Below are positions 5,663-29,109 of a stretch of 60,411 bases of DNA, piece after piece; positions within the stretch are counted from its first letter, which is position 1, and every line of letters begins with the position of its first letter. Origin of the DNA: an uncultured Thiotrichales bacterium (GTDB taxonomy: Bacteria; Pseudomonadota; Gammaproteobacteria; CAZUMV01); assembly GCA_938041655.1 (NCBI GenBank), contig CALISW010000141.1, positions 1-60,411 on the forward strand, written 5' to 3'. Under the pieces are notes generated by a model that was not told the origin of the DNA, made no database searches, and was given only the letters and a program-made list of their open reading frames with translations. Position numbers and translations under genes: made by a program.

Positions 5663-5686
5663 TAATGTTATATCTTTATATCATTT
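5663..5686. promoter_or_regulatory. Palindromic operator copy at an operon-internal promoter (between the SDR and CoA-transferase 1 genes)
   Basis: TAATGTTATA-TCTT-TATATCATTT, in the only sizeable gap (120 nt) of the 1..9585 minus-strand gene string. Confidence 0.55.
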
Positions 5687-5723
5687 TAGCTGTGTCGTAC
5701 GGTTCGTGCAATGAAATCCTGAA

Positions 5724-6557
5724 CTAGTGCATTTCCTCACCACCACTGACATTCATTGCCTCACCGGTGATGTAATAGGAATCATCGGAACTTAAAAATA
5801 CTGCAGCATTGGCTATGTCCGTCACCAGACCGGGGCGCCCCATAGGTATTCTTGCCGCCATATCATCCAGATACTGCTGCACGGTCTTGCCCATGAACTT
5901 GGCAAAGTATTCATTCTGCTCAGCACCCAGGTCAGTCGTGATGTGATTCGGGCAGATCGCATTCACTGTAATTTTTTCTGGACCCAATTCAACCGCATTG
6001 GAGCGAGTCAAACCAATCATGCCGTGCTTGGAAGCAATGTAGGCTGGCAAATGTGGAAAGCCAGACTTGGCTCCCTGACTGGCGATATTAATGATACGCC
6101 CGCCATCTCCCTGGGACATCATCTGTCTGGCCGCATGTTTGGTACACAAAAATGCGCCCATCAAATTCACATCCAGTACGGTTTGCCACTCATCCTTTTC
6201 GACTTCAATCATTGGCTTCATCATGTAACCAATACCAGCATTGTTGACCATAATGTCTACACGACCAAACTCATTCACCGCACCAGCGATCAACTGTTGC
6301 ACCTGCTCCTCATCTCGCACATCACAGGGCAGCGCGACCGCTTTTCCTCCAGCCTCTGCAATATCAGCGAGGATTTGCTGAATCTCGTTTTGATTAGCAA
6401 TCTTTTCTTGTGGCATATGTTTATCGGCCACCGACACATCGGATAGCACAACATTGGCGCCGGCAGCTGCCAGCCCACGTGCAATACCGGCACCAATACC
6501 CTGTACTTTGCCAGCGCCCGTAACTACCGCAACTTTACCCGTTAAATCCTTAGTCAT
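5724..6557 (-). CDS. Short-chain dehydrogenase/reductase (SDR)
   Basis: TGAGKVQGIGAGIA cofactor motif, NNAG, and YIASKHG (YxxxK). Confidence 0.85.
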   Translation of the reverse strand: MTKDLTGKVAVVTGAGKVQGIGAGIARGLAAAGANVVLSDVSVADKHMPQEKIANQNEIQQILADIAEAGGKAVALPCDVRDEEQVQQLIAGAVNEFGRVDIMVNNAGIGYMMKPMIEVEKDEWQTVLDVNLMGAFLCTKHAARQMMSQGDGGRIINIASQGAKSGFPHLPAYIASKHGMIGLTRSNAVELGPEKITVNAICPNHITTDLGAEQNEYFAKFMGKTVQQYLDDMAARIPMGRPGLVTDIANAAVFLSSDDSYYITGEAMNVSGGEEMH

Positions 6558-6560
6558 GAC

Positions 6561-6872
6561 TTACTCAATATCTTCAAGAATTATAAATTGAGGGTTATCC
6601 GCGTAGGTACCAAATTCCGCTGCTACTTTCGCCATCTCACCCTCACCTGCTTCAGCTCCAAGCTTTTCGAAATCATTGACCTGTAGTAACTCAACATATT
6701 GATACGGTGCAGCAGCATCTGTACCGAACATGCCATAGCACTTCAATACATTGAAACCATCAACAGACGACAAGCCACGTGCGGTGGGCAAATCTCTGGT
6801 TCGCGCCCACTCTTCATACTCAGCCGCGTCTACTCCATCTTGCAAATTGAAAACCACCAATACATTCGTCAT
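6561..6872 (-). CDS. Small (103 aa) alpha+beta-barrel-type protein, possibly EthD/REDY-like; function unknown
   Basis: I place the start at MTNVLVVFNL (ATG 6872), which forms an ATGA overlap with the upstream flavoprotein stop (6869-6872). The longer track ORF (to 6938) would overlap that gene by 70 nt. Family assignment is by resemblance only. Confidence 0.5.
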   Translation of the reverse strand: MTNVLVVFNLQDGVDAAEYEEWARTRDLPTARGLSSVDGFNVLKCYGMFGTDAAAPYQYVELLQVNDFEKLGAEAGEGEMAKVAAEFGTYADNPQFIILEDIE

Positions 6873-9585: not shown

Positions 9586-9643
9586 ATTCTCATCAAGATA
9601 AAATTGCGCTAATCGTTCCTGTAAATGGGCTATACCATTTCCC

Positions 9644-9667
9644 CTGAGTTATTGTTGTATTACATCA
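9644..9667. promoter_or_regulatory. Degenerate copy of the TAATGTTATA-N4-TATAACATTA palindrome (weak)
   Basis: ctgaGTTATt-gttg-TATtACATcA. The right arm matches 8/10 and the left arm 5/10. It lies in the divergent region between the PrpD-family operon and the methyltransferase operon. Confidence 0.25.
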
Positions 9668-9728
9668 AAATAAGATACGATCAATACAATCTAACACTGA
9701 TTTAGAAACGATTCACTGGAGAAACTGT

Positions 9729-11875: not shown

Positions 11876-11876
11876 G

Positions 11877-12288: not shown

Positions 12289-12312
12289 AAATGATATATT
12301 TATATATCATTA
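12289..12312. promoter_or_regulatory. Palindromic operator copy upstream of the TonB-dependent receptor
   Basis: AAATGATATA-TTTA-TATATCATTA. The arms are complementary at 9/10 positions. The site ends 72 nt upstream of the receptor ATG. Confidence 0.55.
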
Positions 12313-12383: not shown

Positions 12384-14603
12384 ATGTTACAAACCAGAAT
12401 TAAGCTAATCAGCTTGACCGTTGTGTTATTCAGCTCGTTATTCACTATCACGCCTGTCTTTGCAGAACTGGAAGAAATCGTGGTTACTGCTGAACGACGC
12501 GAAACCAGCGTACAAGACATTCCTATCGCAGTCACCGCATTCAACCAGGATCAACTGGATCGCATGCAAATCACTGAAACACTTGATCTAGTAAAAGTAA
12601 TACCAAACATGATCGGTGCAAACAACACAGGTCTGGGTACGGCTAACACGTACTCAATTCGTGGCCTGAACAATACCGAGTCAATCGCTACTTTTGATCC
12701 ACCAGTTGGTAGTTATATCGGCGACTCTTTCATACAGCGTCAAAATGCCAATAACTTCACCCTGTTCGACGTCGATCGTGTTGAGGTACTGCGTGGCCCA
12801 CAAGGAACACTCTTTGGTAGAAACACCACTGGTGGTGCGGTTCGTGTCATCCTGAAAGATCCAGCCGACGAGTTTGGAGGCTTTGTTGAAGCTGGCATCG
12901 GTCAGTACGACGAAGTTAACTTCAGAGGTAGTGTGGACATTCCTCTTAATGATAAAGCTCGCACAAAGTTCTCTGCCTATCATGTATCTGATGATGGTTA
13001 TGTAGACGTAACCGAGCCTGGCCAGGAAGACCTGAACTACGAAGACAGCTGGGGCGCTCGAGCTGCACTTCAACTTGATATTCACGAATGTGCTAGTTGG
13101 GATGTAACTGTTGCCTATAATGACAACGAACATGCCAACGTGTGGAATGGAGAAGTTAATGGACAGCGTGTGTCAGCTAGTGGCTTGCAAGATGGTGCAT
13201 TTGGCCCTTCTGGTGGAGCTCTAGGCCTGTTAACAGGACCCAAAGCAGAACTACCCGGTAACTTTAACCGCACCCAATCAACCCTTGCGACATCCGATTT
13301 CGAGTTTGAAACTACCATTGGTACTTTGAACGTTATAACCAGTTACATAACGCTTGACCAGGAGTTCAGTCTCGACTTTTTCAACACACCAGTACCGGTA
13401 GGTGGCTTCAGTATCGCCAATATTGGTGAGCATGATCAGTTAACACAGGAGTTCCGTTTAACGGGTTCTGCCTATGATGGCAAACTCGATTATGTTGCTG
13501 GTGCATACTACTTTGAAGAAGATAACGTAACCGATTTTGGCGACATGTTTTTCATTGGCTTCCCTTTAATTCTTGCTGACAGAATCATGAAAAATACCAC
13601 CGAGTCTACAGCTATCTATGCTCAAGGTGACTATCACTTCAATGATCAGGTCACACTGACACTGGGTGCTCGTTATACCGATGAAGAAAAGAACATCGAT
13701 TTCAATGACAACAGAGCTGGAGGACCGCTTACTACTGCGAATATTCAGGCAGCCGGAATCGCCACATCACAGAGCGTGACTAAAGTCACTCCGCGTCTTG
13801 CCTTGAACTATACCGTCAATGACGACCTGTCGATCTATGGATCTGCTACCCGCGGCTTCAAATCAGGTGGCTGGAATGCGCGTGGAACAGCACCTTCTAC
13901 TCTGGCACCGTTTGGCCCGGAAACTGCAACCAACTATGAACTTGGTATGAAATCCGAGTGGGCAAGCAACACAGTTCGTTTGAACCTTGCTATCTTCCAG
14001 ACAGATATTGAAGACTTTCAATTACCTTCAGCGTTCGTTGACCCTGTAACTGGCGCGATTGTTTTCGTTACCCAGAACTTTGCGGATCTGGAAGTATCAG
14101 GTGCGGAAGCTGAGATTCTGTGGCAGCCAAGTGAAGGACTAACTATTTTTGCCAACATTGGTACACAAGACAGTGAGTACGCCAGTCTTGATCCATCCAT
14201 AATAGCCCAACAAGCGAACTGTATTAACAATGCTATGCAATGTGGACAAGGTATCGTTCAAGGTGACGGAACCATTGCAACACCAGTACGAGCACCGGAA
14301 ACCAGCCTGGCACTCGGCGTAAGCTATGAGTTCCAGTTTGGTAATGGTATGAGCCTGACTCCAAGCATTATTTATTCAGACACTGGTGACCACGCTATTG
14401 GAACATCTAATGCTTTCGGTGATGATGTTACTTATGATCAGGTAAATGCCGGCATTACCCTGTCTGGTGCTGATAATAAGTGGAGTGTAAATCTTGGTTG
14501 CACTAACTGCACTGACGAAGCGCAGGAAGTATCCAACCTTGCAGGTTTCATATACTTGAATGAGCCTGAGCGATGGAATCTGAAAGCTAAACTGAACTTC
14601 TAG
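12384..14603 (+). CDS. TonB-dependent outer-membrane receptor
   Basis: Start at MLQTRIKLISL (ATG 12384) preceded by GAAGGGG. Has a signal peptide and the plug motif EEIVVTAERRETSVQDIPIAVTAF. The C-terminal beta-barrel ends in a terminal F (KAKLNF). Confidence 0.9.
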   Translation: MLQTRIKLISLTVVLFSSLFTITPVFAELEEIVVTAERRETSVQDIPIAVTAFNQDQLDRMQITETLDLVKVIPNMIGANNTGLGTANTYSIRGLNNTESIATFDPPVGSYIGDSFIQRQNANNFTLFDVDRVEVLRGPQGTLFGRNTTGGAVRVILKDPADEFGGFVEAGIGQYDEVNFRGSVDIPLNDKARTKFSAYHVSDDGYVDVTEPGQEDLNYEDSWGARAALQLDIHECASWDVTVAYNDNEHANVWNGEVNGQRVSASGLQDGAFGPSGGALGLLTGPKAELPGNFNRTQSTLATSDFEFETTIGTLNVITSYITLDQEFSLDFFNTPVPVGGFSIANIGEHDQLTQEFRLTGSAYDGKLDYVAGAYYFEEDNVTDFGDMFFIGFPLILADRIMKNTTESTAIYAQGDYHFNDQVTLTLGARYTDEEKNIDFNDNRAGGPLTTANIQAAGIATSQSVTKVTPRLALNYTVNDDLSIYGSATRGFKSGGWNARGTAPSTLAPFGPETATNYELGMKSEWASNTVRLNLAIFQTDIEDFQLPSAFVDPVTGAIVFVTQNFADLEVSGAEAEILWQPSEGLTIFANIGTQDSEYASLDPSIIAQQANCINNAMQCGQGIVQGDGTIATPVRAPETSLALGVSYEFQFGNGMSLTPSIIYSDTGDHAIGTSNAFGDDVTYDQVNAGITLSGADNKWSVNLGCTNCTDEAQEVSNLAGFIYLNEPERWNLKAKLNF

Positions 14604-14627
14604 TTTCTGCCTCAGTAAAGAATAAAA

Positions 14628-14655
14628 ATACCCGTCTCAGGACGGGTATTTTTTT
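14628..14655 (+). terminator. Rho-independent terminator after the TonB-dependent receptor
   Basis: ATACCCGTC-TCAG-GACGGGTAT stem-loop followed by a T6 run. Confidence 0.8.
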
Positions 14656-14694: not shown

Positions 14695-15621
14695 ATGGTG
14701 AATAAACAGTTTTATAGTGTAATAGTCGGCGTTGAATCTTTATCAGCTGCATTAGCTTTCTGGCACGATACTCTTGGCTTTTCTATTATCAATCATTCAT
14801 CGGGAGAAGATCGGGACCTTGCCATTATGCTTGGTATTTCTAAAGATGGCGTTGCTGCTCAGGCAATGCTCGGGGTAGATAAACAACAAACATCTGCGCT
14901 GTTACATCTCGTTGAGTTTAAAAATCCAGCCAAGGCAGTGCGTCTAGATGCCAGCCCGATGGATCTATGCCCTAAGAATATCGACCTATACAGTCAAGAC
15001 CTCGACGCTCACTACCAAAGCATGGAAAAAGCCGGCTACCCGTTTAGAGCCCCATGGCAACTACTCGAGGTCGAAGATCCATCCGGATTAAAACAGGTTA
15101 AGGAAGGACAAATACCGGGTCACGATGAAACCAATCTAGGCTTTATGGAATTGGTCGATATGTCGCTCCCCTTTACTGCACCCGGTTTCAGCGGCATGGG
15201 TCCACTAGTAACGGTGGTTAGCGATGCTGATACAGAGCAAGAGTTCTATACTAAACGTCTCGGTTTGGAACTGTGTATGACCCATCAATTCTCAGGCCCT
15301 GAAATAGAAAAAATCGTCGGGCTGCCGCCTGGTAAAGCACTTGATATGCGCTTACTTGGCGATGCTGATGACTGGTTTGGTCGGATTGAGTTAATCGAGT
15401 ATCAAGGAATATCAGGAGAAAATCTCTACGCCAGAGCACATGCACCTGCTACTGGTGCCCTGCACTTGGTATATAAGACAGACGATTACTCACAGAGCCT
15501 GACAGCACTAGCTGAATACAATGGTATCGGACAACAGCGCTCACTTGACTCAGGGCCGTACCAAGGAATAATCCTGCCAGTGACCACACCGGCAGGATTT
15601 AAATTATTCATTAATGGCTAG
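14695..15621 (+). CDS. Two-domain VOC (glyoxalase/bleomycin-resistance/dioxygenase) family protein
   Basis: 308 aa with an AGGAG 6 nt upstream. VESLSAALAFWHDTLGF and a second repeat, EQEFYTKRLGLE, suggest tandem VOC modules. Confidence 0.6.
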   Translation: MVNKQFYSVIVGVESLSAALAFWHDTLGFSIINHSSGEDRDLAIMLGISKDGVAAQAMLGVDKQQTSALLHLVEFKNPAKAVRLDASPMDLCPKNIDLYSQDLDAHYQSMEKAGYPFRAPWQLLEVEDPSGLKQVKEGQIPGHDETNLGFMELVDMSLPFTAPGFSGMGPLVTVVSDADTEQEFYTKRLGLELCMTHQFSGPEIEKIVGLPPGKALDMRLLGDADDWFGRIELIEYQGISGENLYARAHAPATGALHLVYKTDDYSQSLTALAEYNGIGQQRSLDSGPYQGIILPVTTPAGFKLFING

Positions 15622-16513
15622 ATGATTTGCTTGAGGTTTCGCCTCTGGCATCAATGATCTTTTTCATCTTGGTCCAGCTGGTTTCATTCGGGCGTGGATC
15701 ATCACCTGGTGGTGGTGTAGTGTAATCCGGATAGTTTGCTGCGATCTCGTCGCGTAAGACTTTCGGCAATGAATCCCACTCTTTCACTTTGCTACCAACC
15801 GCATTGAAATATAACAGACCACTACGACTACCCATTTCCATCCAGGGTAGCCATTGTGCAATACGAACCCAGGATACACTCGGGTACGCAGAAGTTACTG
15901 TATCATCCATTAACTCACTGAGACTGCCGTTAAAGTCAAAAATCTCGGTGGCATGATAGGTTCCACCGACATACTTCTGATAGTCACCTGCTAGCGGATT
16001 GTTATAAAACAGTGGCACCTCAACTGACATGAACCACTTATTATCTATGGTCATCAGGTTTGCCTGACGCGGCTTACCATCTGCACCCATCGCGTAACTA
16101 GGACGGCTGTTGACCGGATCATTATGTACATGCATAACCTCCACACTTTCACCTGACCATGGGTTATCCCATTGGCGTAATACTTCATTAGTTTCCGGGT
16201 CGAGATAAAGCATAATCTCTTTAGAAACCAGCCGATAACCATTACCCATTTTCGGATCTTTAACGCTCACGCACTGACGAATATTCATACCTTCCAAATT
16301 AAATACGCGCTTGTCAGCTTCACCTGGCACCCTGGCATAAGCTCTACCTGACCAGCGATATAAGGCGGGTTCATTATCCACAGTTGAGCATTGTATTTTT
16401 CGATTGATCTTCAGGTAATTTTCACCACTCCATTCCGGCTTTGGCGCCATCTCGGCATTGGTTGCCGCACAGCCGAATAATGCAACCATTGCCATTAATA
16501 CTATTTTTTTCAT
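15611..16513 (-). CDS. Secreted/lipoprotein of unknown function (possibly DUF1838-like)
   Basis: MKKIVLMAMVALFGCAATNA signal with a lipobox-like LFGC. AAGGAG lies 8 nt upstream of ATG 16513 (the track start, GTG 16516, is one codon longer). The family guess is from memory only. Confidence 0.55.
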   Translation of the reverse strand: MKKIVLMAMVALFGCAATNAEMAPKPEWSGENYLKINRKIQCSTVDNEPALYRWSGRAYARVPGEADKRVFNLEGMNIRQCVSVKDPKMGNGYRLVSKEIMLYLDPETNEVLRQWDNPWSGESVEVMHVHNDPVNSRPSYAMGADGKPRQANLMTIDNKWFMSVEVPLFYNNPLAGDYQKYVGGTYHATEIFDFNGSLSELMDDTVTSAYPSVSWVRIAQWLPWMEMGSRSGLLYFNAVGSKVKEWDSLPKVLRDEIAANYPDYTTPPPGDDPRPNETSWTKMKKIIDARGETSSKSSSH

Positions 16514-16559
16514 CACTTGAACTCCTTAATGAGATAAATATAAATCTGAATAATTGTTA

Positions 16560-18366: not shown

Positions 18367-18374
18367 AGTGATTC

Positions 18375-19043
18375 CTAAAATATAAAGAGATGTAAACCCA
18401 ATGCTGCGTTGATCAACAAACCTGCCCAGATAAGATAAACATAGGGGTGGCACGCTCTGATACTGTTCGCAATGGTCGCATTGACCTCGTCAGTTGCACC
18501 TTCTGTTGTTAACTTGACCCACGCCGGCACAAAGTTAGCGATTTTGCGACGTATCATCAAACCGCAAATCATCATACCCACAAAAATCAGCATTTTTACT
18601 GCCAGCCAATTTCCCTGGTAGATCTTGTCAGTGACTAAACCGTAAACAGCACTCGCGGCCAATACAATGATGATGATATACCGGAAGTTGAGATCAAACT
18701 TTTGCAGGCCAGGCAACCATTGCTTGCCGTGTCCAAAGTGAATAGCAAGCACCATTCCTGCCCACACCAAACAAACCACCCAGGCCAGAACGACCCAGAG
18801 TGATGACATTTGCATATACCCCATGATAAAAGCAAGGTGTATGCCAAACGCTAGAATCAGTGGCATACATAACCGTGGCGCCTGGTCACACCCCATCATG
18901 ATATCCAAAGCTGTTACCCGTGCGGATTTATCAAGATCACTCTTGATAACAAAGTGACTGGCATAAAAAGTACCAAGATCCCCACCCAGCCAGTAAACAA
19001 AACCCAGCAGGTGGAGAAACTTGATGACAAGTATTTCACTCAT
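18375..19043 (-). CDS. Integral membrane protein, 222 aa, unknown function (paralog of 11207..11875)
   Basis: Same length and collinear similarity to the 11207 protein, with multiple hydrophobic spans. Confidence 0.7.
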   Translation of the reverse strand: MSEILVIKFLHLLGFVYWLGGDLGTFYASHFVIKSDLDKSARVTALDIMMGCDQAPRLCMPLILAFGIHLAFIMGYMQMSSLWVVLAWVVCLVWAGMVLAIHFGHGKQWLPGLQKFDLNFRYIIIIVLAASAVYGLVTDKIYQGNWLAVKMLIFVGMMICGLMIRRKIANFVPAWVKLTTEGATDEVNATIANSIRACHPYVYLIWAGLLINAALGLHLFIF

Positions 19044-19051
19044 GTTTGCAC

Positions 19052-20134
19052 CTAGTCGTGCGTATGCCCATGATCATGCCCATCACTATGATCATGATCG
19101 TGGTGATGACCATGGCTGTGACCATGACTATCATCGTCGTGAATATGCTCAGGCGCATGCTCTTCGTATTTCATTTCACGATCAAAACTATGACCAGGAT
19201 TATCACTATTACTAAAGTCATCTGGTGTTTTGATCTTGCGCTTACCCATCAAAGGCATGGTTCTTTCAAAATCTTCAGGCCCATGTGGGTGATTGTGCGA
19301 AGTAGACACCATCCAGTTATAGAGTATCGGATCACGACGCTGTAAACGAGCGGCAGAGCGCAGTTGATTTTCTTTTGGCGTGGTCCACGGATTGTAATGA
19401 AAATGATTAAAGAGTTTTGAGTCGGTTCGACCCAGGGCAATACAACCAAGATTCGAGGCAAACGCGCCGTGGTTGATATATGCCGGACGCCAAAAGTAAC
19501 CGCCCGTTGGTATCTCACCAAACTGCATCATCCATGAGGTACCCCACAGGTGGTAGGACTCCTCGGCACAGTCGTGGTAGGAAATATTATCCTGCCAAAA
19601 GTCCGGGGTCATACAGTACAAAAATGTCAGTGCCATACTATTCGGATTGTAATTAAGCAGCTTGACCATACAACCACTGGCAACAGTCGGTGATGTCACA
19701 CCACCACCGGCCCATGGAATATCATCAAATGAGCTGACATCGTGATACAAAGCAGGGTTACATTGTTGATGATGCGAACGTGACGAGACGTGTGAAGGTC
19801 CGCCAGTATTGAACATCATCAATAATAGTGCGCCGTCTTTAGACTTGAGGCTGGACATTGAATAACCAGCCGGAACATAAAAATAATGTCCTCGTCGATA
19901 AGTCTTATTACCGAACTGAATCTCACCCTCTTGCACCATCAGCTCGTACTCTGACCAACTGAAACCAGGCGGACGCTTATAACCACCGTCCAACTGCACA
20001 GTCATACTGCATGCACCAGTCTCATTATCAAGACTCAGCATTTTGTAGCGGAAACCTTTGCCCATACCGGGCAAGGTCATATTTTTAAAATGAACATCGC
20101 GATCGCAAAACGGTTCTATATGTGGTCTTCCCAT
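19052..20134 (-). CDS. Cupin-like protein with C-terminal His/Asp-rich metal-binding tail
   Basis: 360 aa. Cupin-like strands (YELMVQEGEIQFG...HYFYVPAG; YHLWGTSWMMQFGEIPTGGYFWRPAYINHGAF). The last 31 residues, HIHDDDSHGHSHGHHHDHDHSDGHDHGHTHD, contain 14 His and 8 Asp by my count. Confidence 0.5.
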   Translation of the reverse strand: MGRPHIEPFCDRDVHFKNMTLPGMGKGFRYKMLSLDNETGACSMTVQLDGGYKRPPGFSWSEYELMVQEGEIQFGNKTYRRGHYFYVPAGYSMSSLKSKDGALLLMMFNTGGPSHVSSRSHHQQCNPALYHDVSSFDDIPWAGGGVTSPTVASGCMVKLLNYNPNSMALTFLYCMTPDFWQDNISYHDCAEESYHLWGTSWMMQFGEIPTGGYFWRPAYINHGAFASNLGCIALGRTDSKLFNHFHYNPWTTPKENQLRSAARLQRRDPILYNWMVSTSHNHPHGPEDFERTMPLMGKRKIKTPDDFSNSDNPGHSFDREMKYEEHAPEHIHDDDSHGHSHGHHHDHDHSDGHDHGHTHD

Positions 20135-20143
20135 GATCCTCTC

Positions 20144-20437
20144 CTATTTCTTTTCTACGCCATATTTCCATATGACAGTGTTAGCATTCTTGCGTTTCGG
20201 CTCTACCGGTATATCTTCGGGTTTGATCTTCATACGTTGATCACCATCGAAGTTAAATCCACGTGACTGAATACGCGTCAGAAACTGGGCGTACCACTTT
20301 TTACGTTGTGGCTCCAGATCCTTCATCTGACGGCGAATCTTGTTATAACGCTTTTCCTGTTCGTCCACTTCCTCGGCATGCCACTCTTTTTCTGCCTTGG
20401 TTGGCTTGTGCTTTATCTTTGTAAATAAAAATGTCAT
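20144..20437 (-). CDS. Hypothetical highly charged protein (97 aa)
   Basis: The ORF fits tightly in the operon (21 nt and 9 nt gaps). No domain recognised. Confidence 0.45.
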   Translation of the reverse strand: MTFLFTKIKHKPTKAEKEWHAEEVDEQEKRYNKIRRQMKDLEPQRKKWYAQFLTRIQSRGFNFDGDQRMKIKPEDIPVEPKRKNANTVIWKYGVEKK

Positions 20438-20458
20438 TGATGTCTCCTTTACTAATGT

Positions 20459-21667
20459 CTAAATATTTGTGCATTGGAAGATATCGCCGTGCTCGATCAA
20501 CTGATCGATATCTCCGTCTGCGTAGCCAATTTCGGCTAATACTTCTCTCGTGTGTTCGCCCAACCTTGGAGGCAGACGATCGATTGATGCCGGTGTTTTT
20601 GATAAATTCGCCGGCGGGCTTGAAAATCGTAATTTACCTTCTGTCGGATGCTCGTGCTCCTGCCAAAAACCTGTGCTGACAAGATGCTCATCAGTCAGCA
20701 AAGTATCCAGTGAGTTAACCACCATCATAGGAACATTAGTATCACCTAACAAATCCAACCACTCTTGACGGGTCTTTTCCTTAATCACATCACCGGTCGC
20801 TTTGTACGACGCATTAATGTTTTGCAGACGACTTTTCATATCCTTGAAATCCGGGTTCTCTGCCAGTTCCGGATGACCCGATAATTTAGCAAAGGTCAGC
20901 CAATGGTTATCCCAGTATGGCAATACCGCCAAATACAAACCGTCTTTGGTCTCATAGGGTCGTCGATGACTTGCCATTAAGCGTACATAACCAGCTTCAC
21001 CAATCGGCGGTTCAAAAGTTTTCCCCCACATGTGTTCGGTCATCACAAATGCAGCCATAGTTTCGAACATCGGAACCTCTATCTGCTGTCCTTCTCCTGT
21101 TCGTTCTCGATGAAACAAAGCCGCTAAAATCGACTGAGCCGCCATCATGCCTGTGGTCTTATCAGCAACGATGGTAGGCAAGTAACGTACCTCGCCATAC
21201 ATTTCCTTGACCAACATGGCGATACCGGACGCCGCCTGAATCGAATCATCCAGCGCACCCTTCTCACCATATACACCCTTGGTTGAATAACCATAAGCAC
21301 CACAGTAAACAATGTTCGGATTGTATTTAACTATATCGTCGTATCCAAAACCGAGTCTGGCGATCGATTGTGGCCGGTAATTATGTAGCACCACATCCGC
21401 TTCTTTAATCAATGAATGACAGGCTGCTTTGCCACCTTCCGACTTCAGATCCAGCACAATACTGCGCTTGTTGCGGTTACAGCCCATGAACAATGAAGAC
21501 ATGTCTGCATTTTCGCGCGAAGGCCCCAGGTTACGATTAGTATCACCGCCAGGTGGCTCTACTTTGACTACATCAGCGCCATGATCAGCCAGCATTTGAC
21601 CGGCGTATGGGCCCAACACGACACTCGCCATTTCTACTATTTTTACGCCTTGTAGTGCACCACTCAT
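20459..21667 (-). CDS. Family III (CaiB/BaiF) CoA-transferase, copy 2
   Basis: GVKIVEMASVVLGPYAGQMLADHGADVVKVEPP N-terminus. ATGA overlap with the upstream amidohydrolase stop. Confidence 0.9.
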   Translation of the reverse strand: MSGALQGVKIVEMASVVLGPYAGQMLADHGADVVKVEPPGGDTNRNLGPSRENADMSSLFMGCNRNKRSIVLDLKSEGGKAACHSLIKEADVVLHNYRPQSIARLGFGYDDIVKYNPNIVYCGAYGYSTKGVYGEKGALDDSIQAASGIAMLVKEMYGEVRYLPTIVADKTTGMMAAQSILAALFHRERTGEGQQIEVPMFETMAAFVMTEHMWGKTFEPPIGEAGYVRLMASHRRPYETKDGLYLAVLPYWDNHWLTFAKLSGHPELAENPDFKDMKSRLQNINASYKATGDVIKEKTRQEWLDLLGDTNVPMMVVNSLDTLLTDEHLVSTGFWQEHEHPTEGKLRFSSPPANLSKTPASIDRLPPRLGEHTREVLAEIGYADGDIDQLIEHGDIFQCTNI

Positions 21668-22518
21668 AATTTATATAACTGCCTGGCGTTATCACGCATA
21701 AATTTTTGTCGCGCTTCGGGCTTAAGTTCCATGTCATTTATTTCTGCTACAGTACGCTCAAAACGAAGTACCGGGAAATCAGTACCAAACAACACTTTAT
21801 CCTGCCCATAGCTATTGATGTATTGCTTGACTGACGCGGGCCAGTATTTAGGGCTGTGCGCGTCAGTAGCGATATATACATTTTCGTGCTTCCATGCCAT
21901 GGCGATCATTTCGTCCTGCCAGGGTATACCGACATGTGTGCCAATGAGTTTCAACTCAGGTAAATCACAAGCAACATCATCGAGATAAATAGGTCTACCG
22001 ACACTCTTGCCGCGCTGGTCTTTGCTATAAATCAGTGACTGTCCGACCTGCATCTGGATTGGGATATCCAGCTCTATGCACTTGGCATAAAACGGATAGT
22101 AACGTGCGTGATTGGGCGGCAGATCAAACCAGTGTGGATACAGATGAGCACCAATAAAACCCATATTAGTCACGGCATCTTCCATCGCCCTGACTCCATC
22201 CATTCCTTGGAATGGATCAACCCCGATCAAACCACGAAAGCGATCCGGGTATTGATCAACTGCCTTGGCAACGACCTCGGGAGGCATATGGTAGCTGCCA
22301 GGCAATCCCAGCCTGCCTGATTTAGCCGCAACCAGAAAACCAATTTCTATATTGGCAGCATCCATACCTTCGAGCATGCTTTCCAGTGAAATACCCTGAC
22401 TATCGTGCTTACCTTTTACCTTGCCAACAAAAAATTCGTCAGTCCACCCCGGCCTGTGAGACAAAGCCTCTTCGTTCCAGAGATTAACAACAGCATCTAT
22501 GGCGCCGTAATTTTCCAT
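21664..22518 (-). CDS. Amidohydrolase_2 family protein (ACMSD/LigI-like metal-dependent hydrolase or decarboxylase)
   Basis: 284 aa with typical length and C-terminal DKVLFGTDFP motif. The start shares one base with the upstream stop (TAATG). Confidence 0.7.
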   Translation of the reverse strand: MENYGAIDAVVNLWNEEALSHRPGWTDEFFVGKVKGKHDSQGISLESMLEGMDAANIEIGFLVAAKSGRLGLPGSYHMPPEVVAKAVDQYPDRFRGLIGVDPFQGMDGVRAMEDAVTNMGFIGAHLYPHWFDLPPNHARYYPFYAKCIELDIPIQMQVGQSLIYSKDQRGKSVGRPIYLDDVACDLPELKLIGTHVGIPWQDEMIAMAWKHENVYIATDAHSPKYWPASVKQYINSYGQDKVLFGTDFPVLRFERTVAEINDMELKPEARQKFMRDNARQLYKL

Positions 22519-23177
22519 TATGCTCCCAGCACAATGATAGCCAGACCACAGGCACTAATCGTGGCACCACAGGCTGTATGACCAAATCTAAACATGGAAA
22601 AGTGTCTCAGCCTTGCCAGCCCGTAACTGGTAATCAAGACTGCACCAAGCATCGTCAACATGGTTACTCCGGCAAAGACAGCAGTTACCAACAACATGCC
22701 TGCGACACTAAAAGTCATTGCGGGATACATCAGTATTGGAATCAGTGGTTCACAAGGGCCAATGATAAAAATGACTAAAATGGCGAACGGAGAAAATCTG
22801 GCCAGTTTAAAGCCTGAGCCATCAACGTCATGATGCGTATGTGTGGCCTTTTTCTTGTAAGCATGCCGCAAACCCCAGACTGCATATACCAAACCAAAGG
22901 CAACCAGCAACCAGGCTGCTATTTCTCCACGCATGCTCTCAATTAAACCCAGCTGGTCCAGCTTGGCTCTTATGGCGATACCGACGAAGCCCAGCAGTAC
23001 CGACCCGAGAATATGCCCAAATCCGATCAAAGTGGTAACCGCCGCCAGTTTTTTCATACTCCAGTTTCTGGCTGCAGAAACTGCCGTTAATGGTAGATAG
23101 TGATCAACACCAATAATAGTGTGGACAAAGGCAATAGTTGCCGCCGTACTGGCGAGCACTAAAAGTTCTGGATGCAT
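22518..23177 (-). CDS. Integral membrane protein with His-rich loop; candidate metal (Ni/Co-type) transporter
   Basis: 219 aa, about 6 hydrophobic spans. Has VHTIIGVDH in the first span and a central KKKATHTHHDVDG loop. The family call is tentative. Confidence 0.35.
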   Translation of the reverse strand: MHPELLVLASTAATIAFVHTIIGVDHYLPLTAVSAARNWSMKKLAAVTTLIGFGHILGSVLLGFVGIAIRAKLDQLGLIESMRGEIAAWLLVAFGLVYAVWGLRHAYKKKATHTHHDVDGSGFKLARFSPFAILVIFIIGPCEPLIPILMYPAMTFSVAGMLLVTAVFAGVTMLTMLGAVLITSYGLARLRHFSMFRFGHTACGATISACGLAIIVLGA

Positions 23178-23198
23178 TGCGACTCTCTAGCTATGTTA

Positions 23199-23222
23199 TA
23201 ATGTTATATGATTAGTACATTA
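23199..23222. promoter_or_regulatory. Palindromic operator copy in a divergent promoter region
   Basis: TAATGTTATA-TGAT-TAGTACATTA. A TATAAT hexamer overlaps the left arm. The site is 22 nt from the minus-strand gene start and 75 nt from the LeuC-like start. Confidence 0.6.
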
Positions 23223-23296: not shown

Positions 23297-24712
23297 ATGA
23301 CTAGCACATTATTCGACAAAATCTGGCAGGACCATCTGGTCAGCGAGCTTGAAGGCGGCGAGTCATTACTTTATATAGATCGCATCTTTTTGCATGAAAG
23401 AACTGGCAGTATTGCCATGCAAAGCCTGGTCGACCAAGGGCGAGGCATCAAAAATCCTGAACACGTATTTTGCACTATCGATCATATCGTAGACACCACA
23501 CCGGGTCGTACAGATATGACACTACTCCCGTCCGGTCATGAGTTTATTCGCAGCACCAGAAAACTCGCACTGGACTTCGGTATACAGTTCTTTGACATCA
23601 ATGATCCGCGGCAAGGTATCGTTCATGTAGTCTCACCAGAACAAGGTATTGCCCTACCCGGTTGCATCATAGTATGCCCGGACAGTCACACCTGTACACT
23701 CGGCGGCCTCGGTGCGCTGGGATGGGGCATCGGCTCTACTGATGCTGAACACGCTATAGCAACCTCAACACTCAAGTCTAGAAAACCAAAAAACATGCGC
23801 ATCACCTTCTCCGGTGTTACAGCCCCAGGAGTTACCGCCAAAGACATGATTCTGCATCTGATTGGTGAATATCAAGCCAGCGGTGGCCAGGGATACGCGC
23901 TAGAGTTCGCAGGCGAAGCTGTCACCAACCTATCGATCGAAAGTCGACTGACTCTGTGCAACATGGCAGTAGAGTTCTCCGCATTCAGCGCGGTTATTGC
24001 ACCCGATGAAAAGACTATTGAATACGTTAAGGGCCGACCCTACGCTCCTGCTGGCAAACAATGGGAGCAAGCTGTAGAGCATTGGCAAACTCTCAAGTCC
24101 GAGCTTGATGCAAGCTTTGATGCCGAGATAGTGATAGATGCCAGCAAAATCGAACCTTGTGTTACCTGGGGCACCAGTCCGGAACATGTCATCGGGATAA
24201 ATGATACCGTGCCTGACCCATTGCGAGAAGACAATCTCGAAAAGAGAGCAGCAATGCAACGCGCACTCGAATATATGGATCTTAAACCAGGTGAACAAGC
24301 CAACAAGATCCATATAGATGCCGCGTTCATTGGCTCATGCACCAATAGTCGACTAAGTAATCTACAAGCGGCGGCTGAGCAGCTAAAAGGCAAGCGCGTA
24401 GCGGAACATGTAAAAGCTATTTGTGTACCCGGTTCTACGCAAGTAAAAGCTGCCGCCGAAAAAGAAGGGTTGGATAAAATCTTCATCGACGCTGGTTTTG
24501 AATGGCGTGAAGCTGGTTGCTCAATGTGTTTTTACGCTGGCGGTGAAACCTTTGGCGAGAAACAGCGCATTATTACCAGCACCAACCGTAATTTTGAAGG
24601 CCGCCAAGGGCCGGGGAACCGCTCACATCTTGCCAGCGCGGTGATGGTAGCGGCGAGCGCTGTAGAAGGTCACATAACTGCTCCGAAACAATCAGGTGAA
24701 AACAATGGATAA
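23297..24712 (+). CDS. Aconitase-superfamily hydro-lyase large subunit (LeuC-like)
   Basis: 471 aa. LLYIDRIFLHE, GSCTNSR and CSMC cluster-ligand motifs. There is no leuB next to it, and it is divergent from a catabolic operon. Confidence 0.8.
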   Translation: MTSTLFDKIWQDHLVSELEGGESLLYIDRIFLHERTGSIAMQSLVDQGRGIKNPEHVFCTIDHIVDTTPGRTDMTLLPSGHEFIRSTRKLALDFGIQFFDINDPRQGIVHVVSPEQGIALPGCIIVCPDSHTCTLGGLGALGWGIGSTDAEHAIATSTLKSRKPKNMRITFSGVTAPGVTAKDMILHLIGEYQASGGQGYALEFAGEAVTNLSIESRLTLCNMAVEFSAFSAVIAPDEKTIEYVKGRPYAPAGKQWEQAVEHWQTLKSELDASFDAEIVIDASKIEPCVTWGTSPEHVIGINDTVPDPLREDNLEKRAAMQRALEYMDLKPGEQANKIHIDAAFIGSCTNSRLSNLQAAAEQLKGKRVAEHVKAICVPGSTQVKAAAEKEGLDKIFIDAGFEWREAGCSMCFYAGGETFGEKQRIITSTNRNFEGRQGPGNRSHLASAVMVAASAVEGHITAPKQSGENNG

Positions 24713-25316
24713 ATTCACCGACCACTTTGGCTTAACCGCACCGCTGATGCGAATCAATATTGATACTGATGCAATTATCCCTTCCAAAAGAATGCGCAGT
24801 GTTTCCAAACACGGTCTTGGCCCATCTGCTTTTTACAACTGGCGCTTTCATGAAGAAAACGTAGAAAATCCTGAATTCGTACTCAACCAGGCTCCATATC
24901 GGGATGCCAGCATTTTACTCAGCGGGAAAAATTTTGGTTGCGGCTCATCGAGAGAGCACGCCGTCTGGGCCCTGAAAGAATTTGGTATTAAAACCATCAT
25001 TGCCCCCAGCTTTGGTACGATTTTTTATAAAAACTGTATACGAAACGGGATCTTACCGGCGACTCTGGGAGAGAAAGAACTTGAGCAGTTAGCCGAGTCT
25101 GTGGCCAATAGTGGTGACAAGCACTCTATGATTGACCTGGAAAAGAAAATTATTTCACATGGGTCTCTGGAGTTTTCATTTGAGATAGTTGAAACCGATC
25201 AAAAGACCTTGCTTGCTGGCCTTGATCCGATCACGCAAACATTATTACATGCAAAATCTATTGATGAATTTATCAGTCAGGACCGATCCAGTCGCAAGTG
25301 GGCACATCTAGACTAG
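24705..25316 (+). CDS. Aconitase-superfamily hydro-lyase small subunit (LeuD-like)
   Basis: GKNFGCGSSREHAVWAL motif. ATG 24705 is preceded by AGGTGA and overlaps the large-subunit stop by 8 nt (the track start is GTG 24696). Confidence 0.8.
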   Translation: MDKFTDHFGLTAPLMRINIDTDAIIPSKRMRSVSKHGLGPSAFYNWRFHEENVENPEFVLNQAPYRDASILLSGKNFGCGSSREHAVWALKEFGIKTIIAPSFGTIFYKNCIRNGILPATLGEKELEQLAESVANSGDKHSMIDLEKKIISHGSLEFSFEIVETDQKTLLAGLDPITQTLLHAKSIDEFISQDRSSRKWAHLD

Positions 25317-25336
25317 AGCTGTATGCAGGTTAAGAC

Positions 25337-26515
25337 TTACTTAACCAGACCCTGATCTCGCAATGTAGCAATCTCTTGATCAGACAAACCCAGATCTTTG
25401 GCAATCTCTGAAAAATGCTCTCCAGCCTGCGGCGGGTTGTGTCGGGCTGGCATACGCTTACCGGAAAACTCAACTGGAATACCAGGCAGTAAAGCCTTGG
25501 TGCCGTCTGTAAGTTCAAGCTCCAGCAAGCCACCATCGAGTAAATGTTCATCCGTAAACAAATCAGATGGCGTGTTGATTGGCGCATAGGGCAAACCAAT
25601 TTTATCCAGCTTGTGCAGCAATTTCTTTTTGCTTAACTTACCAAAGGCCTTGGCCACCACCGGCAAGATTGTCTCACGGGCCTCTACCCTGCCATTGTTA
25701 CTGGCGAGACTCTCATCCTCTGACCACTCTTTAAAACCAAAGACCTCACAAAAACCTCGCCACAATGTATCACTCACTACAGCAACAAAAATCTTCTCGT
25801 CATCTTTAGTCGTGAAAATGTCATATATTGCCCAGGCAGAATTACGCTGACTCATCGGCGGCGGAGCTATCCCGGTAACCGCTTCTTGCGCCATGTGCTG
25901 TCCCATCAAAAAGACGGTCGACTCAAACAATGAACTGGTCAGATATTGCCCTTTGCCGGTAGTGTGTCGCTGCTCAATTGCCGAAAGAATTCCAATCACA
26001 CCAAACATACCTCCAGAAACATCAACCACTGATGCTCCTGCACGCATTGGCTTGTCTGGCAAACCTGTCATATACGCCAGTCCACCCATCATTTGGGTGA
26101 CTTCATCGAGCGCAGTTCGATGTTGATAAGGACCGGAAAGAAAACCTTTCAAAGAGCAATATACCAGTCGGTCATTCAGGGCTGCACAATCGTCATAGCC
26201 CAGGCCCAGCTTATCCATCGCACCGGGTCGAAAATTTTCTATCATGATGTCAGCGGTGCGTAGCAACTTATAGACGAAGGTCAAACCGTCATCGGATTTC
26301 AAATCTACGCAGATACTTTTCTTATTGCGGTTATACATCGGAAAATAACCGGCTCCAGAACCTTTCAGCCGCCGGGTGTTATCACCCGCCAGAGGTTCAA
26401 CCTTGATCACCTCAGCACCCAGATCTGCGAGTATCAATCCTGCTGAAGGCCCCATGACCATGTGTGTAAATTCTATGACTCGCAAGCCAGCTAACGGGAG
26501 TGTTGCCTGTTCCAA
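25337..26515 (-). CDS. Family III (CaiB/BaiF) CoA-transferase, copy 3
   Basis: LAGLRVIEFTHMVMGPSAGLILADLGAEVIKVEP N-terminus; TTG start. Confidence 0.88.
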   Translation of the reverse strand: MEQATLPLAGLRVIEFTHMVMGPSAGLILADLGAEVIKVEPLAGDNTRRLKGSGAGYFPMYNRNKKSICVDLKSDDGLTFVYKLLRTADIMIENFRPGAMDKLGLGYDDCAALNDRLVYCSLKGFLSGPYQHRTALDEVTQMMGGLAYMTGLPDKPMRAGASVVDVSGGMFGVIGILSAIEQRHTTGKGQYLTSSLFESTVFLMGQHMAQEAVTGIAPPPMSQRNSAWAIYDIFTTKDDEKIFVAVVSDTLWRGFCEVFGFKEWSEDESLASNNGRVEARETILPVVAKAFGKLSKKKLLHKLDKIGLPYAPINTPSDLFTDEHLLDGGLLELELTDGTKALLPGIPVEFSGKRMPARHNPPQAGEHFSEIAKDLGLSDQEIATLRDQGLVK

Positions 26516-26565
26516 AATATTACCTGTTGTGAACTATCTCGACCTAATACATTGAGTATTAGGTA

Positions 26566-26589
26566 TAATGTAATAACAATATAACATTA
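26566..26589. promoter_or_regulatory. Palindromic operator copy in a divergent promoter region
   Basis: TAATGTAATA-ACAA-TATAACATTA. The arms are complementary at 9/10 positions. TATAAT (26564-26569) overlaps the left arm. Confidence 0.6.
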
Positions 26590-26621
26590 GACCTCACTTG
26601 CACAGGTTGAGCTTCAATATT

Positions 26622-27557
26622 ATGAGCACCAGAGATATAGAAATCAGTGAAGTTGGCCCACGAGACGGACTGCAAAGCATCGACTCGATCATGTCTACCG
26701 CCGACAAAAAAGCCTGGATTAAAGCTCAGGCAGAAGCAGGCACACCCGAAATAGAAGTCGGATCATTCGTGCCAGCCAAGCTGTTACCTCAATTAGCAGA
26801 TACAGCAGAACTGGTTGAATATGCAACCGGCATTCCTGACCTCAATGTGGCCGTGTTAGTACCCAACCTGTTCGGCGCCAAACGCGCCATAGAAACTGGC
26901 GCCCATAAAATTACCCTGCCTTTCTCGTTAAGTGAAACGCACAGCATGAAAAATGTACGGCGAACGCACGCACAAGTTATCGACGAGATCAGCAATATAG
27001 TAGCCGCTATTAGTGAAAGCGAGAATCGCGACAACACCGTGTTCGAAGTTGGTCTCTCAACCGCGTTTGGATGCACACTCGAAGGCGCCATTGACGAAGA
27101 CTTTGTCGTTGCAATGGCAGCCAAAGCCATTGAACTCGGAGCAGATGAAGTTGGTCTGTCAGACACCACCGGCTACGCCAACCCGACACAAGTCACTCGC
27201 TTGACCAAAGCAATACATCATGAAATCGGCGCTGACAAAATGACTGGCATACATTTGCACAATACGCGTGGCCAAGGGTTGGCTAATGTTATGGCCGCAT
27301 TGGAAGTCGGCTTAACTACGCTGGACTCTTCTCTTGGTGGTATTGGTGGCTGTCCATTTGCACCCGGCGCCAGCGGCAATATCGTTACCGAAGATCTGGT
27401 GTTTTTACTCGAAGCCATGGGCTTAAAAACCGGCATCGATATGGACAAGCTGCTAGCGGTTAGAGAGCAAGTTCAAAAAACACTACCCGAAGAAGAGCTC
27501 TACGGCTTTGTCGCTGCGGCCGGCTTACCTAAAGATTTTGAGGCTGCCAGCGCCTAG
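26622..27557 (+). CDS. HMG-CoA lyase-like (DRE-TIM) acyl-CoA lyase, copy 2
   Basis: VGPRDGLQS, HLHNTRGQGLAN and GGIGGCPFAPGASGNIVTED motifs. I prefer ATG 26622 (MSTRDIEI) over the track's TTG 26598. Confidence 0.85.
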   Translation: MSTRDIEISEVGPRDGLQSIDSIMSTADKKAWIKAQAEAGTPEIEVGSFVPAKLLPQLADTAELVEYATGIPDLNVAVLVPNLFGAKRAIETGAHKITLPFSLSETHSMKNVRRTHAQVIDEISNIVAAISESENRDNTVFEVGLSTAFGCTLEGAIDEDFVVAMAAKAIELGADEVGLSDTTGYANPTQVTRLTKAIHHEIGADKMTGIHLHNTRGQGLANVMAALEVGLTTLDSSLGGIGGCPFAPGASGNIVTEDLVFLLEAMGLKTGIDMDKLLAVREQVQKTLPEEELYGFVAAAGLPKDFEAASA

Positions 27558-27566
27558 CTATAACGG

Positions 27567-29057
27567 TTAGGAAGATGGCCGACTGAGATATTCTCCACGT
27601 GCACCACCAATGACCAGACCGTCTTTATAGACTTTTTCACCACGAAGATAGGTAGTGGTGACCTTGCCAGTAAGCTCTTTACCTTCAAACGGCGTATAAC
27701 CTTGCGAAGACTCAGATTCCTCATGGCGAACCGTAAATGTCACCTCAGGGTCGAGCATAACCAAATCAGCGTCATAGCCTTCAGCAATATCACCTTTACT
27801 ATTTAAACCATAACGTTGCGCCGGGTTTCTCGAAACCAATTCAGCCATTTTATTGAGCGATAGTCCTCTCTTACTACCCTCGCTATACAGACCCGAGAGC
27901 AAGTACTCTGTTCCGCCAAAACCGGATTTGGAAACCCAAATATTGTCCGGGTTTGAAGCATCGTGATTTTCTGTTTTCAGCTCTTCCTGACAGCAGGCAT
28001 GATCACTGGTTACCCAGTCAACATTCCCGTCCAGCAACTGTTCCCACAAATACTCGACGTCTTCGCGCGAGCGAATCGGTGGGTTCACTTTGGCGTGACA
28101 GCAAGCCGGATCATCATAATCGAGCAACATGTGCCCGATGGTCACTTCGCGTCTAAAGTTAATATGCGGGAAGACGGTTTGCATCATCATCGCTGCTTCC
28201 ATTGCCTTGCGTGAGGTCAAATGCAGCAAGTTAATGTTTAAACATTCAGTTTCATATGCCAGATAGGAAGCAATCCAGACCGCCAGACCTTCTGAATGAG
28301 GTGGTCTGGCTGCACTGTAGGCGCGCAAGCCCGTTAACTTACCCTCAGATTGCACCAGCTTGGTATAAGCATTGAGTATGTCAGCCAACTCACAATGCAA
28401 ACTCACACTGATCTGGTCTGACATATCCGGATACTTCTTAATCAGCTTGGCTGCACCACGCATAATGAACTCAAAGTGTGCAATATCGTAAGAATCGTCT
28501 TCATCAATCATGAGGAATTCACGTTGTGCATTTTTATCCGTTTTACCGTGCAGACCATAGCCACCATAAAACATAAATATCTTGAATGATGAAACGCCAT
28601 GGTTGATCAGCAAACTCTCCATCTCATCAATGTGAGAACTCGATATAGGTGCCAAATGATAGGCATAATCAACCCAGTAGTTTCCTTTCGAGATATCCAG
28701 TACTTCCGGGTAAAAGTCTTCGTAAGAACCACCCTTGTTAAGATAATACTGCCCTGTACGGAAGTAGGTTATTGCCGAAGTGACACCACCCATAGCGGCT
28801 GCTTTACTCTCGGTCACTGCATCTTCATGCAAGGGTGAATAGATACCGACGTGCATATGAGCATCAACCAAACCGGGGAATACCAACTTACCGCCAGCAT
28901 CATCAACCGCTCGCGCCTTGTCTGCAGCTATATCTGGCGCTACTAATGATATTTTCCCTGATGTAATGGCAATATCTTGCTGAATTACCTCATCTTTTCC
29001 TGGCTGTACAACGCGAGCGTTTTTAATGATGAGATCGTATTGATGAGTATCTGACAT
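27567..29057 (-). CDS. Cyclic amidohydrolase (dihydropyrimidinase / D-hydantoinase-like)
   Basis: 496 aa. PGLVDAHMHVG (HxH) and SFKIFM (carboxylated-Lys context) are typical of the DHPase/hydantoinase/allantoinase clan. Confidence 0.8.
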   Translation of the reverse strand: MSDTHQYDLIIKNARVVQPGKDEVIQQDIAITSGKISLVAPDIAADKARAVDDAGGKLVFPGLVDAHMHVGIYSPLHEDAVTESKAAAMGGVTSAITYFRTGQYYLNKGGSYEDFYPEVLDISKGNYWVDYAYHLAPISSSHIDEMESLLINHGVSSFKIFMFYGGYGLHGKTDKNAQREFLMIDEDDSYDIAHFEFIMRGAAKLIKKYPDMSDQISVSLHCELADILNAYTKLVQSEGKLTGLRAYSAARPPHSEGLAVWIASYLAYETECLNINLLHLTSRKAMEAAMMMQTVFPHINFRREVTIGHMLLDYDDPACCHAKVNPPIRSREDVEYLWEQLLDGNVDWVTSDHACCQEELKTENHDASNPDNIWVSKSGFGGTEYLLSGLYSEGSKRGLSLNKMAELVSRNPAQRYGLNSKGDIAEGYDADLVMLDPEVTFTVRHEESESSQGYTPFEGKELTGKVTTTYLRGEKVYKDGLVIGGARGEYLSRPSS

Positions 29058-29085
29058 AGTTAATTCAAGCCCCTATTATTTGCGA

Positions 29086-29109
29086 TAATGATATAACAAT
29101 ATAGCTTTA
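29086..29109. promoter_or_regulatory. Palindromic operator copy upstream of the dihydropyrimidinase-like gene
   Basis: TAATGATATA-ACAA-TATAGCTTTA, 29 nt upstream of the minus-strand ATG at 29057. Confidence 0.5.

Follow-up and report, generated by a model that had tools for sequence, protein, structure and literature searches.

HutC-family proteins are repressors that are released by effectors (PMC4333415, PMC4918961), and in the crystal structure of NagR bound to DNA, 4-nt half-sites are separated by 6 nt (PMC4333415). Here we describe a putative operator of a related kind from an uncultured Thiotrichales bacterium. It is located on a contig of 60,411 nucleotides (CALISW010000141.1), the whole of which is referred to as the window. 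In brief, a 24-bp palindrome, TAATGTTATA-N4-TATAACATTA, is found at six promoters of the window. We suggest that the 24-mer is the operator of one factor, probably an uncharacterised GntR repressor of the HutC subfamily, which would co-regulate a multi-operon catabolic island.

The original prediction, made by reading the intergenic DNA, listed six strong copies of the palindrome, and our coordinates and sequences match these exactly. Allowing for up to three mismatches, the window contains exactly six matches, while 100 dinucleotide-preserving shuffles contain none. A matrix built from the six sites scores its own sites at 27.8-31.7 bits and the rest of the window at 6 bits or less, save for echoes shifted by 8 bp at the same promoters and one weak match beside site 3. 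The GC content is 46.6% for the window and only 37% for its intergenic DNA. The test was therefore repeated on shuffled intergenic DNA with an independent matrix, built only from 129 unique sites that are not from the window. With this matrix the scores are 21.8-31.7 bits for the six sites and less than 7 bits for the next match outside their promoter regions; the shuffled intergenic DNA of the window gave 0.04 matches of at least 15 bits per shuffle. This confirms that the motif is real and far beyond chance.

Site 1 (5663-5686; 30.2 bits with the independent matrix) is located 59 nt 5' of the start of a CoA-transferase gene (CoAT1), and site 2 (12289-12312; 31.7 bits) 71 nt 5' of the likely start of a gene for a TonB-dependent receptor (ATG at 12384). 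Site 3 (16560-16583) lies in a 103-bp divergent region between genes encoding a DUF1838 lipoprotein and a CpeT-like lipoprotein; it has a third half-site 8 bp leftward, beginning at 16552, and scores of 28.7 and 24.5 bits. Site 4 (23199-23222; 21.8 and 21.2 bits) also has a third half-site, beginning at 23191. It is found in the divergent region between the operon of a His-rich membrane protein on the minus strand and a LeuC-like gene on the plus strand. Site 5 (26566-26589; 27.3 bits) separates CoA-transferase 3 (CoAT3, minus strand) from HMG-CoA-lyase-like 2 (HMGL2, plus strand), again in a divergent region, and site 6 (29086-29109; 29.4 bits) is located 28 nt 5' of the start of a cyclic amidohydrolase gene, just beyond the terminator of an upstream LysM/BON gene.

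Several details of the original prediction were reproduced. Three of the six sites are in divergent intergenic regions, all lie 21-74 nt from start codons when sensible start codons are used, and the identical 16-mer TGTTATAATGTTATAT is present at both 16555-16570 and 23194-23209. A further weak copy had been listed at 9644-9667. This is not a site: the score there is -3.7 bits and the best score in the whole intergenic region (9586-9728) is 0.9, so the copy is unsupported. A seventh site, ATATGTTATAATGATATATCAATG, was found in a 99%-identical strain (locus L162, an ENA ERZ6864376 contig) that was reached via full-length HydB and provides 10 kb more to the left. This site (L162:7644-7667; 23.9 bits) lies outside the window, approximately 2 kb past its left end, and is flanked by a SnoaL-like gene and an ADH/FAD_binding_4/DctQ/DctM/NmrA/CMD operon. 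The regulon therefore extends past the window and includes a TRAP transporter.

Two sets of related loci were used for comparison. Set 1 consists of 80 genome loci fetched via the DUF1838 protein (best identity 64%), mostly from metagenome-assembled genomes of Halieaceae and other Cellvibrionales, and also from Lysobacterales, Chromatiales and Alphaproteobacteria. Set 2 consists of 80 metagenome loci, retrieved with an alignment of the GntR protein described below as bait. The window-derived matrix found the same 10-4-10 palindrome in set 1 at a GC content of 55-70%, with 75 sites against none in shuffles. An AT-only 24-mer of this kind is very improbable in such DNA, and the motif is conserved. 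In 2.16 Mb from 161 related loci (43-70% GC), 204 sites outside the window reach at least 17 bits, and the shuffles gave none. The large majority of these (176) fall within the 13% of the DNA that is outside long open reading frames (ORFs), an approximately 40-fold enrichment. The consensus of the 129 unique sites, TAATGWTATA-WNNW-TATAWCATTA, is the same as the one originally read from the window.

The original prediction also tied the operons of the window together as one regulon. This is supported by the relatives, as in distant, GC-rich genomes the motif is kept in front of the orthologous genes. A site is present upstream of the orthologues of CoAT3 in 16 of 22 cases (in the CoAT3/HMGL2 region), the TonB receptor in 5 of 7, LeuC in 13 of 28, the unknown 267-aa protein (unk267) in 16 of 32 and DUF1838 in 16 of 68. 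Sites are also found in front of genes that are absent from the window. These include an isochorismatase-like operon with two PuuE-like deacetylases (16 of 28 cases), and genes for a CN-hydrolase, a periplasmic amine oxidase, an aldehyde dehydrogenase and MFS/SSF transporters. The gene island is found widely among marine Gammaproteobacteria (Halieaceae/OM60-NOR5, Luminiphilus, Oceanicoccus-like and others), and some Alphaproteobacteria have it too. HydB of the window is 87% identical to HydB of Oceanicoccus sagamiensis, and the best DUF1838 match (64%) is from Halieaceae. One locus, from Cellvibrionales bacterium GM7GCV1 (L014), has most of the cluster genes in a similar order, but neither an operator of at least 12 bits nor, within 20 kb, a gene for a regulator.

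No regulator was in view in the original prediction other than an Lrp/AsnC protein. Our Pfam search agrees. It covered 47 window ORFs of at least 100 aa, those outside the four RND-pump ORFs (31829-42616), and detected just one transcription factor in them, this protein (51118-51612). In the relatives, a gene family is found flanking the sites. It encodes proteins of approximately 258 aa with Pfam GntR HTH and UTRA domains, the composition of the HutC subfamily. Of the 80 loci of set 1, which were fetched independently of this gene, 11 carry an orthologue of it within the cluster, 53-82% identical to the copy used as query (L009). Sites are present in all 11 of these loci and in 21 of the 69 others (hypergeometric p ~1e-5). 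The DNA-reading helix, SRITAKR, is invariant across the orthologues. In 25 of 32 GntR lineages (85% clusters) the GntR gene is preceded, at no more than 300 bp, by a site of at least 14 bits. Most relatives have such a regulator gene in the cluster, often with its own copy of the motif placed as for autoregulation, and we infer that this GntR protein binds the motif.

The GntR protein falls below every equivalog cut-off in NCBIfam, with 100 bits for HutC (cut-off 220) and 78 bits for PhnF (cut-off 157). It belongs to no named orthologous group (HutC, PhnF, NagR, DasR, TreR and others), and the solved structures closest to it are 2ra5, YvoA/NagR and DasR. The family comprises 1294 clusters at 90% identity (E<=1e-60), and every name among them is the generic "GntR family". 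Nothing relevant to the motif, to DUF1838 or to this combination of genes emerged from literature searches, in agreement with the view of the original prediction that the regulon is undescribed.

The overlap of predicted -10 boxes with the sites was earlier taken as the geometry of a repressor operator, and our results are in line with this. A TATAAT overlaps the left arm at three sites (16558, 23197 and 26564), as had been noted. Site 1 carries TTGCAC-17-TAAAAT on the minus strand, with TAAAAT (5688-5683) over the right arm (by eye), and site 2 is overlapped by the promoter-like sequence TTCACT-16-TATATT. At site 3 an extended -10, TGTTATAAT, on the plus strand and a TATATT on the minus strand lie inside the site or at its edge. 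Site 4 has TTGCCT-17-CATAAT on the minus strand, and TGTTATAAT is seen there too (by eye). Site 5 has a TATAAT at 26564-26569 and site 6 has TTTAGA-17-TATCAT on the minus strand. The promoter-like matches thus place -10 hexamers within or at the edge of sites 2, 3, 4 and 6. No more than 33-48 nt separate the site centres from the starts of the memHis, DHPase, HMGL2 and CpeT genes, too short a distance for a class II activator at these four.

Since promoter elements form part of the sites, it could be argued that there is no dedicated factor, and that the palindrome consists of back-to-back AT-rich -10 boxes in compact divergent regions, or is a chance likeness in AT-rich DNA. TATAAT or the extended -10 does form the outer edges of the arms, and three of the sites are divergent. 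However, the G5/C20 pair, the inner TATA pairs and the N4 spacer all lie outside the -10 hexamers and are conserved at 55-70% GC, and three of the six sites serve one gene direction only. Promoter-like matches in the region overall are at chance level, so generic promoters do not yield this motif, and neither does shuffled AT-rich intergenic DNA with its 0.04 matches. We find this explanation hardly credible.

The overlap with the -10 boxes, the distances to the start codons and the behaviour of HutC-family proteins make repression by promoter occlusion, lifted by a metabolite of the pathway, the best-supported mode of action. In the uninduced state the GntR repressor would occupy its operators, which overlap with the -10 hexamers. 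At each of the three divergent regions a single operator would cover two face-to-face promoters, and RNA polymerase would be blocked at both. Binding of the pathway substrate, or an intermediate, to the UTRA domain would then release the repressor.

The spacing of the operator is strict. We found 89 matches with a 4-nt spacer and 0-2 at other lengths, except for 15 matches at N12 that are due to an 8-bp register. In relatives, a third unit another 8 bp out is present at 25 of 112 sites, against 5.6 expected. In the window such third units are found at sites 3 (16552-16583) and 4 (23191-23222) and, weaker, at sites 5 (26558-26589) and 6 (29078-29109). The extra half-site has the form xTTG/xATG...TATA and is on the left side in all window cases. 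A shorter, perfect palindrome, TGATATATCA, is present in 52 copies in 2.17 Mb, and 38 of these are located just upstream of a GntR gene. The GntR-proximal site is typically yTTTGATATATCATTA, which read as TTTG/AATG-ATATAT-CATT has a 4-6-4 geometry. The 24-bp sites of the regulon fit this geometry only as two overlapping units with weak inner half-sites. We suggest that the 24-mer may be composed of two 14-bp HutC-type units (AATG-WTATAW-nnWT), offset by 8 bp, in which the outer half-sites are strong and the inner ones weak. Given the overlapping units and the frequent third unit, more than one dimer probably binds the predicted operator.

A number of observations weigh against the GntR protein as the binding factor. 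The 24-bp sites are wider than any solved operator of the HutC family, and reading them as overlapping units is sterically problematic. The gene is embedded in the same cluster across the 80 metagenome loci of set 2, a figure that is biased because GntR was the bait. No GntR gene is found in the 60-kb window or in the 10 kb to the left of it in L162. From the synteny of loci L137 and L140 the gene was expected after HydB, and in L162 it is not there. The Alphaproteobacterial loci with the motif have neither a GntR nor a Crp-like gene within 10 kb. Finally, in the clade of Congregibacter, NOR5-3 and Halioglobus maricola a Crp/Fnr-family gene occupies the regulator slot and the same motif is kept. 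Since no GntR gene is present in the window or in the leftward extension from L162, and a narrow clade has a Crp/Fnr gene in the slot, the GntR assignment is probable and not proven.

These observations may also be explained if the motif is bound by a factor encoded elsewhere, or by a Crp/Fnr-family protein, so that the GntR and Crp-like genes are regulated members or secondary local regulators. The source genome, with seven sites and no regulator within approximately 70 kb, fits such an arrangement, as do the Alphaproteobacterial loci. In five loci a Crp/Fnr gene is divergent from DUF1838 with the motif in between (L031:9189-9968, L033, L034, L037 and L169:10001-10690), and the loci of this clade carry the motif at other promoters as well. 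At its outer edges (AAATGT...ACATTT) the motif looks like a CRP-type site, though one whose spacer is longer (by reading). The Crp-like family is narrow, however (56 clusters at E<=1e-40). Of the 80 GntR-baited loci with sites, 78 lack the Crp-like gene; the other two, L155 and L157, have only a distant, 37%-identical one. Where both genes occur, in L155, it is the GntR gene that has the site in front of it, not the Crp-like one. No Crp-like match was traced to the genome of O. sagamiensis, whose locus has sites of 16-24 bits. The recognition helix of the Crp-like protein, LETTSR, appears to be of the FNR type (by reading), predicting TTGAT-N4-ATCAA boxes, and no such boxes are found at the promoters of the Crp-containing loci. 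The G5-C20 distance of 15 bp corresponds to neither FNR (9) nor CRP (13) geometry. Several sites are also too near the start codons for activation and overlap the -10 rather than -41.5 or -61.5. No third regulator family recurs beside the sites; we noted only LacI-like and MarR-like genes, at single loci each (by eye, from N-terminal sequences). Based on these observations, we consider an unlinked or Crp/Fnr-family regulator rather unlikely. The Crp/Fnr gene at the GntR position gives the impression that one regulator gene was exchanged for another in place.

The genes of the regulon are organized as follows. The site 1 operon (1-5603, minus strand) encodes a family III CoA-transferase, an HMG-CoA-lyase-like protein and hydantoinase/oxoprolinase A and B, of which B runs off the window. 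This operon recurs with the same operator in relatives. In three relatives with a 94%-identical HydB (L163:5699-5722, L165 and L168), the CoA-transferase, HMG-lyase-like and hydantoinase A/B genes and their operator (31 bits) are found in entirely different surroundings, with ppsA and a LysR gene as neighbours. An operon and operator of the site 1 type thus behave as a movable module. The gene of site 2 encodes the TonB-dependent receptor (12384-14603, plus strand). Site 3 serves the genes of the DUF1838 lipoprotein (15611-16516, minus strand) and the CpeT/CpcT-like lipoprotein (16620-17648, plus strand). A strong hairpin terminator at 14624-14653, after the TonB receptor gene, has a symmetric A5...T5 and could work in both directions; another is located at 29143-29169, between the LysM/BON gene and site 6.

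The minus-strand genes at site 4 (17650-23177) are probably one operon. They encode the His-rich membrane protein, an Amidohydro_2 protein, CoA-transferase 2, a DUF4437 cupin, a membrane protein and the unknown 267-aa protein, in an order that is shared with relatives L092-L094, L109 and L170. On the plus strand, site 4 is followed by genes for a LeuC/LeuD-like dehydratase (23297-25316). This pair clears the NCBIfam leuC/leuD cut-offs (TIGR00170: 562 against 560 bits) and so would be annotated as the isopropylmalate dehydratase of leucine biosynthesis, whereas leuA stands alone, 24 kb away. The pair is a warning for annotation, as genes of a catabolic module can pass the leuC/leuD thresholds. 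Site 5 serves CoAT3 (25337-26515, minus strand) and HMGL2 (26622-27557, plus strand, likely ATG at 26622), and site 6 the cyclic amidohydrolase, which is allantoinase/D-hydantoinase-like (27567-29057, minus strand). In the matrix scan, a PrpD-like/FAD/HapK/SDR operon and a methyltransferase-to-YCII operon have no site in this genome. Elsewhere in the window, three ORFs of approximately 1060 aa each (33035-36217, 36230-39412 and 39428-42616, in the region 31829-42616) stand in tandem behind the gene of a membrane-fusion protein and look like RND-type pump paralogues. In the region 45526-49372, the genes for a bacterial homologue of angiotensin-converting enzyme (Peptidase_M2, E 1e-221) and for a DUF885 protein are divergently oriented.

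Two proteins of the cupin operon have His-rich features in their sequences. The DUF4437/ChrR-type cupin (19052-20134, minus strand) ends in a His/Asp-rich tail of 29 residues, HIHDDDSHGHSHGHHHDHDHSDGHDHGHTHD, and the His-rich membrane protein encoded by the first gene (22518-23177, minus strand) has an HTHHD loop. These hint at metal handling inside the catabolic regulon. They may also be taken to indicate that the sites are boxes for Zur or another Fur-family protein, and the block a zinc or metal-starvation regulon. Fur-family genes are usually unlinked to their targets, and an unlinked regulator of this kind would fit a window with no regulator in view. The regulon contains, besides the cupin with its HGHSHGHHHDHDH tail and the His-rich membrane protein, a TonB-dependent receptor. 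The gammaproteobacterial Zur box, GAAATGTTATANTATAACATTTC, has exactly the same half-site, AATGTTATA, and Zur boxes overlap -10 regions (PMC2706843), as do these sites. The spacer, however, is 4 and not the 1 of Zur (89 against 2 matches), and no canonical Zur box was found in the window or in 168 loci. A tblastn search of 2.17 Mb around the sites gave no Fur or Zur homologue, with E. coli Fur and Zur as queries. The targets are CoA-transferases, lyases, dehydratases, amidases, transporters and the GntR regulator, and no znuABC-, COG0523- or ribosomal-protein-paralogue-like Pfam matches were seen among the site-adjacent genes examined. On spacing, gene content and the lack of Fur-family genes near the sites we rejected this interpretation as very improbable. 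Matrices based on half-sites could nevertheless mis-assign these sites to Zur.

For the pathway under control of the predicted repressor, NCBIfam and PDB sequence searches with 20 cluster proteins gave family-level matches only. Among the enzymes are cyclic amidohydrolases, amidases, a periplasmic amine oxidase and ATP-dependent enzymes of the hydantoinase/lactamase type, together with maleate-isomerase/arylmalonate-decarboxylase-like, LeuCD-like and PrpD/IDS-epimerase-like proteins and a TcuA-like flavoprotein. The best NCBIfam models of the three family III CoA-transferases are mesaconate-, glutarate- and formyl-CoA-transferase, all far below cut-off, and two HMG-CoA-lyase-like enzymes are part of the regulon. 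The families present suggest that a ring compound containing nitrogen is broken down to branched di- or tricarboxylates, which would be cleaved as CoA esters.

In brief, uptake might occur by the TonB-dependent receptor and a pair of lipoproteins, one with the bilin-binding fold of CpcT/CpeT. The ring might then be opened by cyclic-imide/lactam hydrolases (hydantoinase A/B, allantoinase-like and PuuE-like), followed by half-amidases (isochorismatase-like and CN-hydrolase), a LeuCD-type (dimethyl)maleate-like hydratase and three CoA-transferase/HMG-lyase-like steps. Because the TonB receptor occurs together with a lipoprotein of bilin-lyase fold, we speculate that the substrates may be tetrapyrrole-derived imides; one candidate class is maleimide or pyrrole fragments of bilins and chlorophyll. 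That the island as a whole is an unrecognised marine pathway for a scarce nitrogen compound, under a HutC-type repressor on arrays of overlapping 14-bp units in 8-bp register, is a bold proposal that we hold to be doubtful. If the main proposal of one operator and one repressor is correct, a single motif defines a regulon of approximately 20-35 genes in abundant lineages of coastal bacterioplankton. Many of its members are of uncharted function (DUF1838, the DUF4437 cupin, the CpeT-like lipoprotein, DUF1330 and unannotated families). The operator and the candidate regulator would make the regulon traceable and provide a handle for the substrate search.

Compared with known systems, the operator shares its 9-nt half-site, its AT-rich palindrome and the -10 overlap with the gammaproteobacterial Zur box, which has a spacer of 1 instead of 4. 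With CRP/FNR sites it shares the form of a palindrome of approximately 22-24 bp, here with AAATGT...ACATTT edges, whereas the half-site spacing here is 2-6 bp wider. HutC, the repressor of histidine utilisation, is the best NCBIfam match of the candidate, but far below the equivalog cut-off. HutC presumably recognises a short AT-rich palindrome of the TG-N6-CA type, TGTATATACA, which resembles TGATATATCA; the core sequence differs and there are no hut genes here. Also close are NagR (YvoA) and DasR with its dre operator, GntR/HutC-subfamily repressors of N-acetylglucosamine genes. The candidate has the same GntR winged helix-turn-helix and UTRA architecture, the site at its own promoter, TTTG/AATG-ATATAT-CATT, has the 4-6-4 spacing of NagR, and operators over promoters and autoregulation are common to both. 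The differences are the half-site (AATG here, GTGG there), the AT-rich sequence, the unrelated target genes and the operator itself, which here is 24 bp with strong half-sites 16 nt apart and extra units in an 8-bp register. Binding to such an array would be undescribed for the HutC-type family, and it is part of the bold proposal held doubtful above. The regulon and its operator are new and broadly conserved, and the kind of control proposed, by a local repressor of the HutC type, is one already known.

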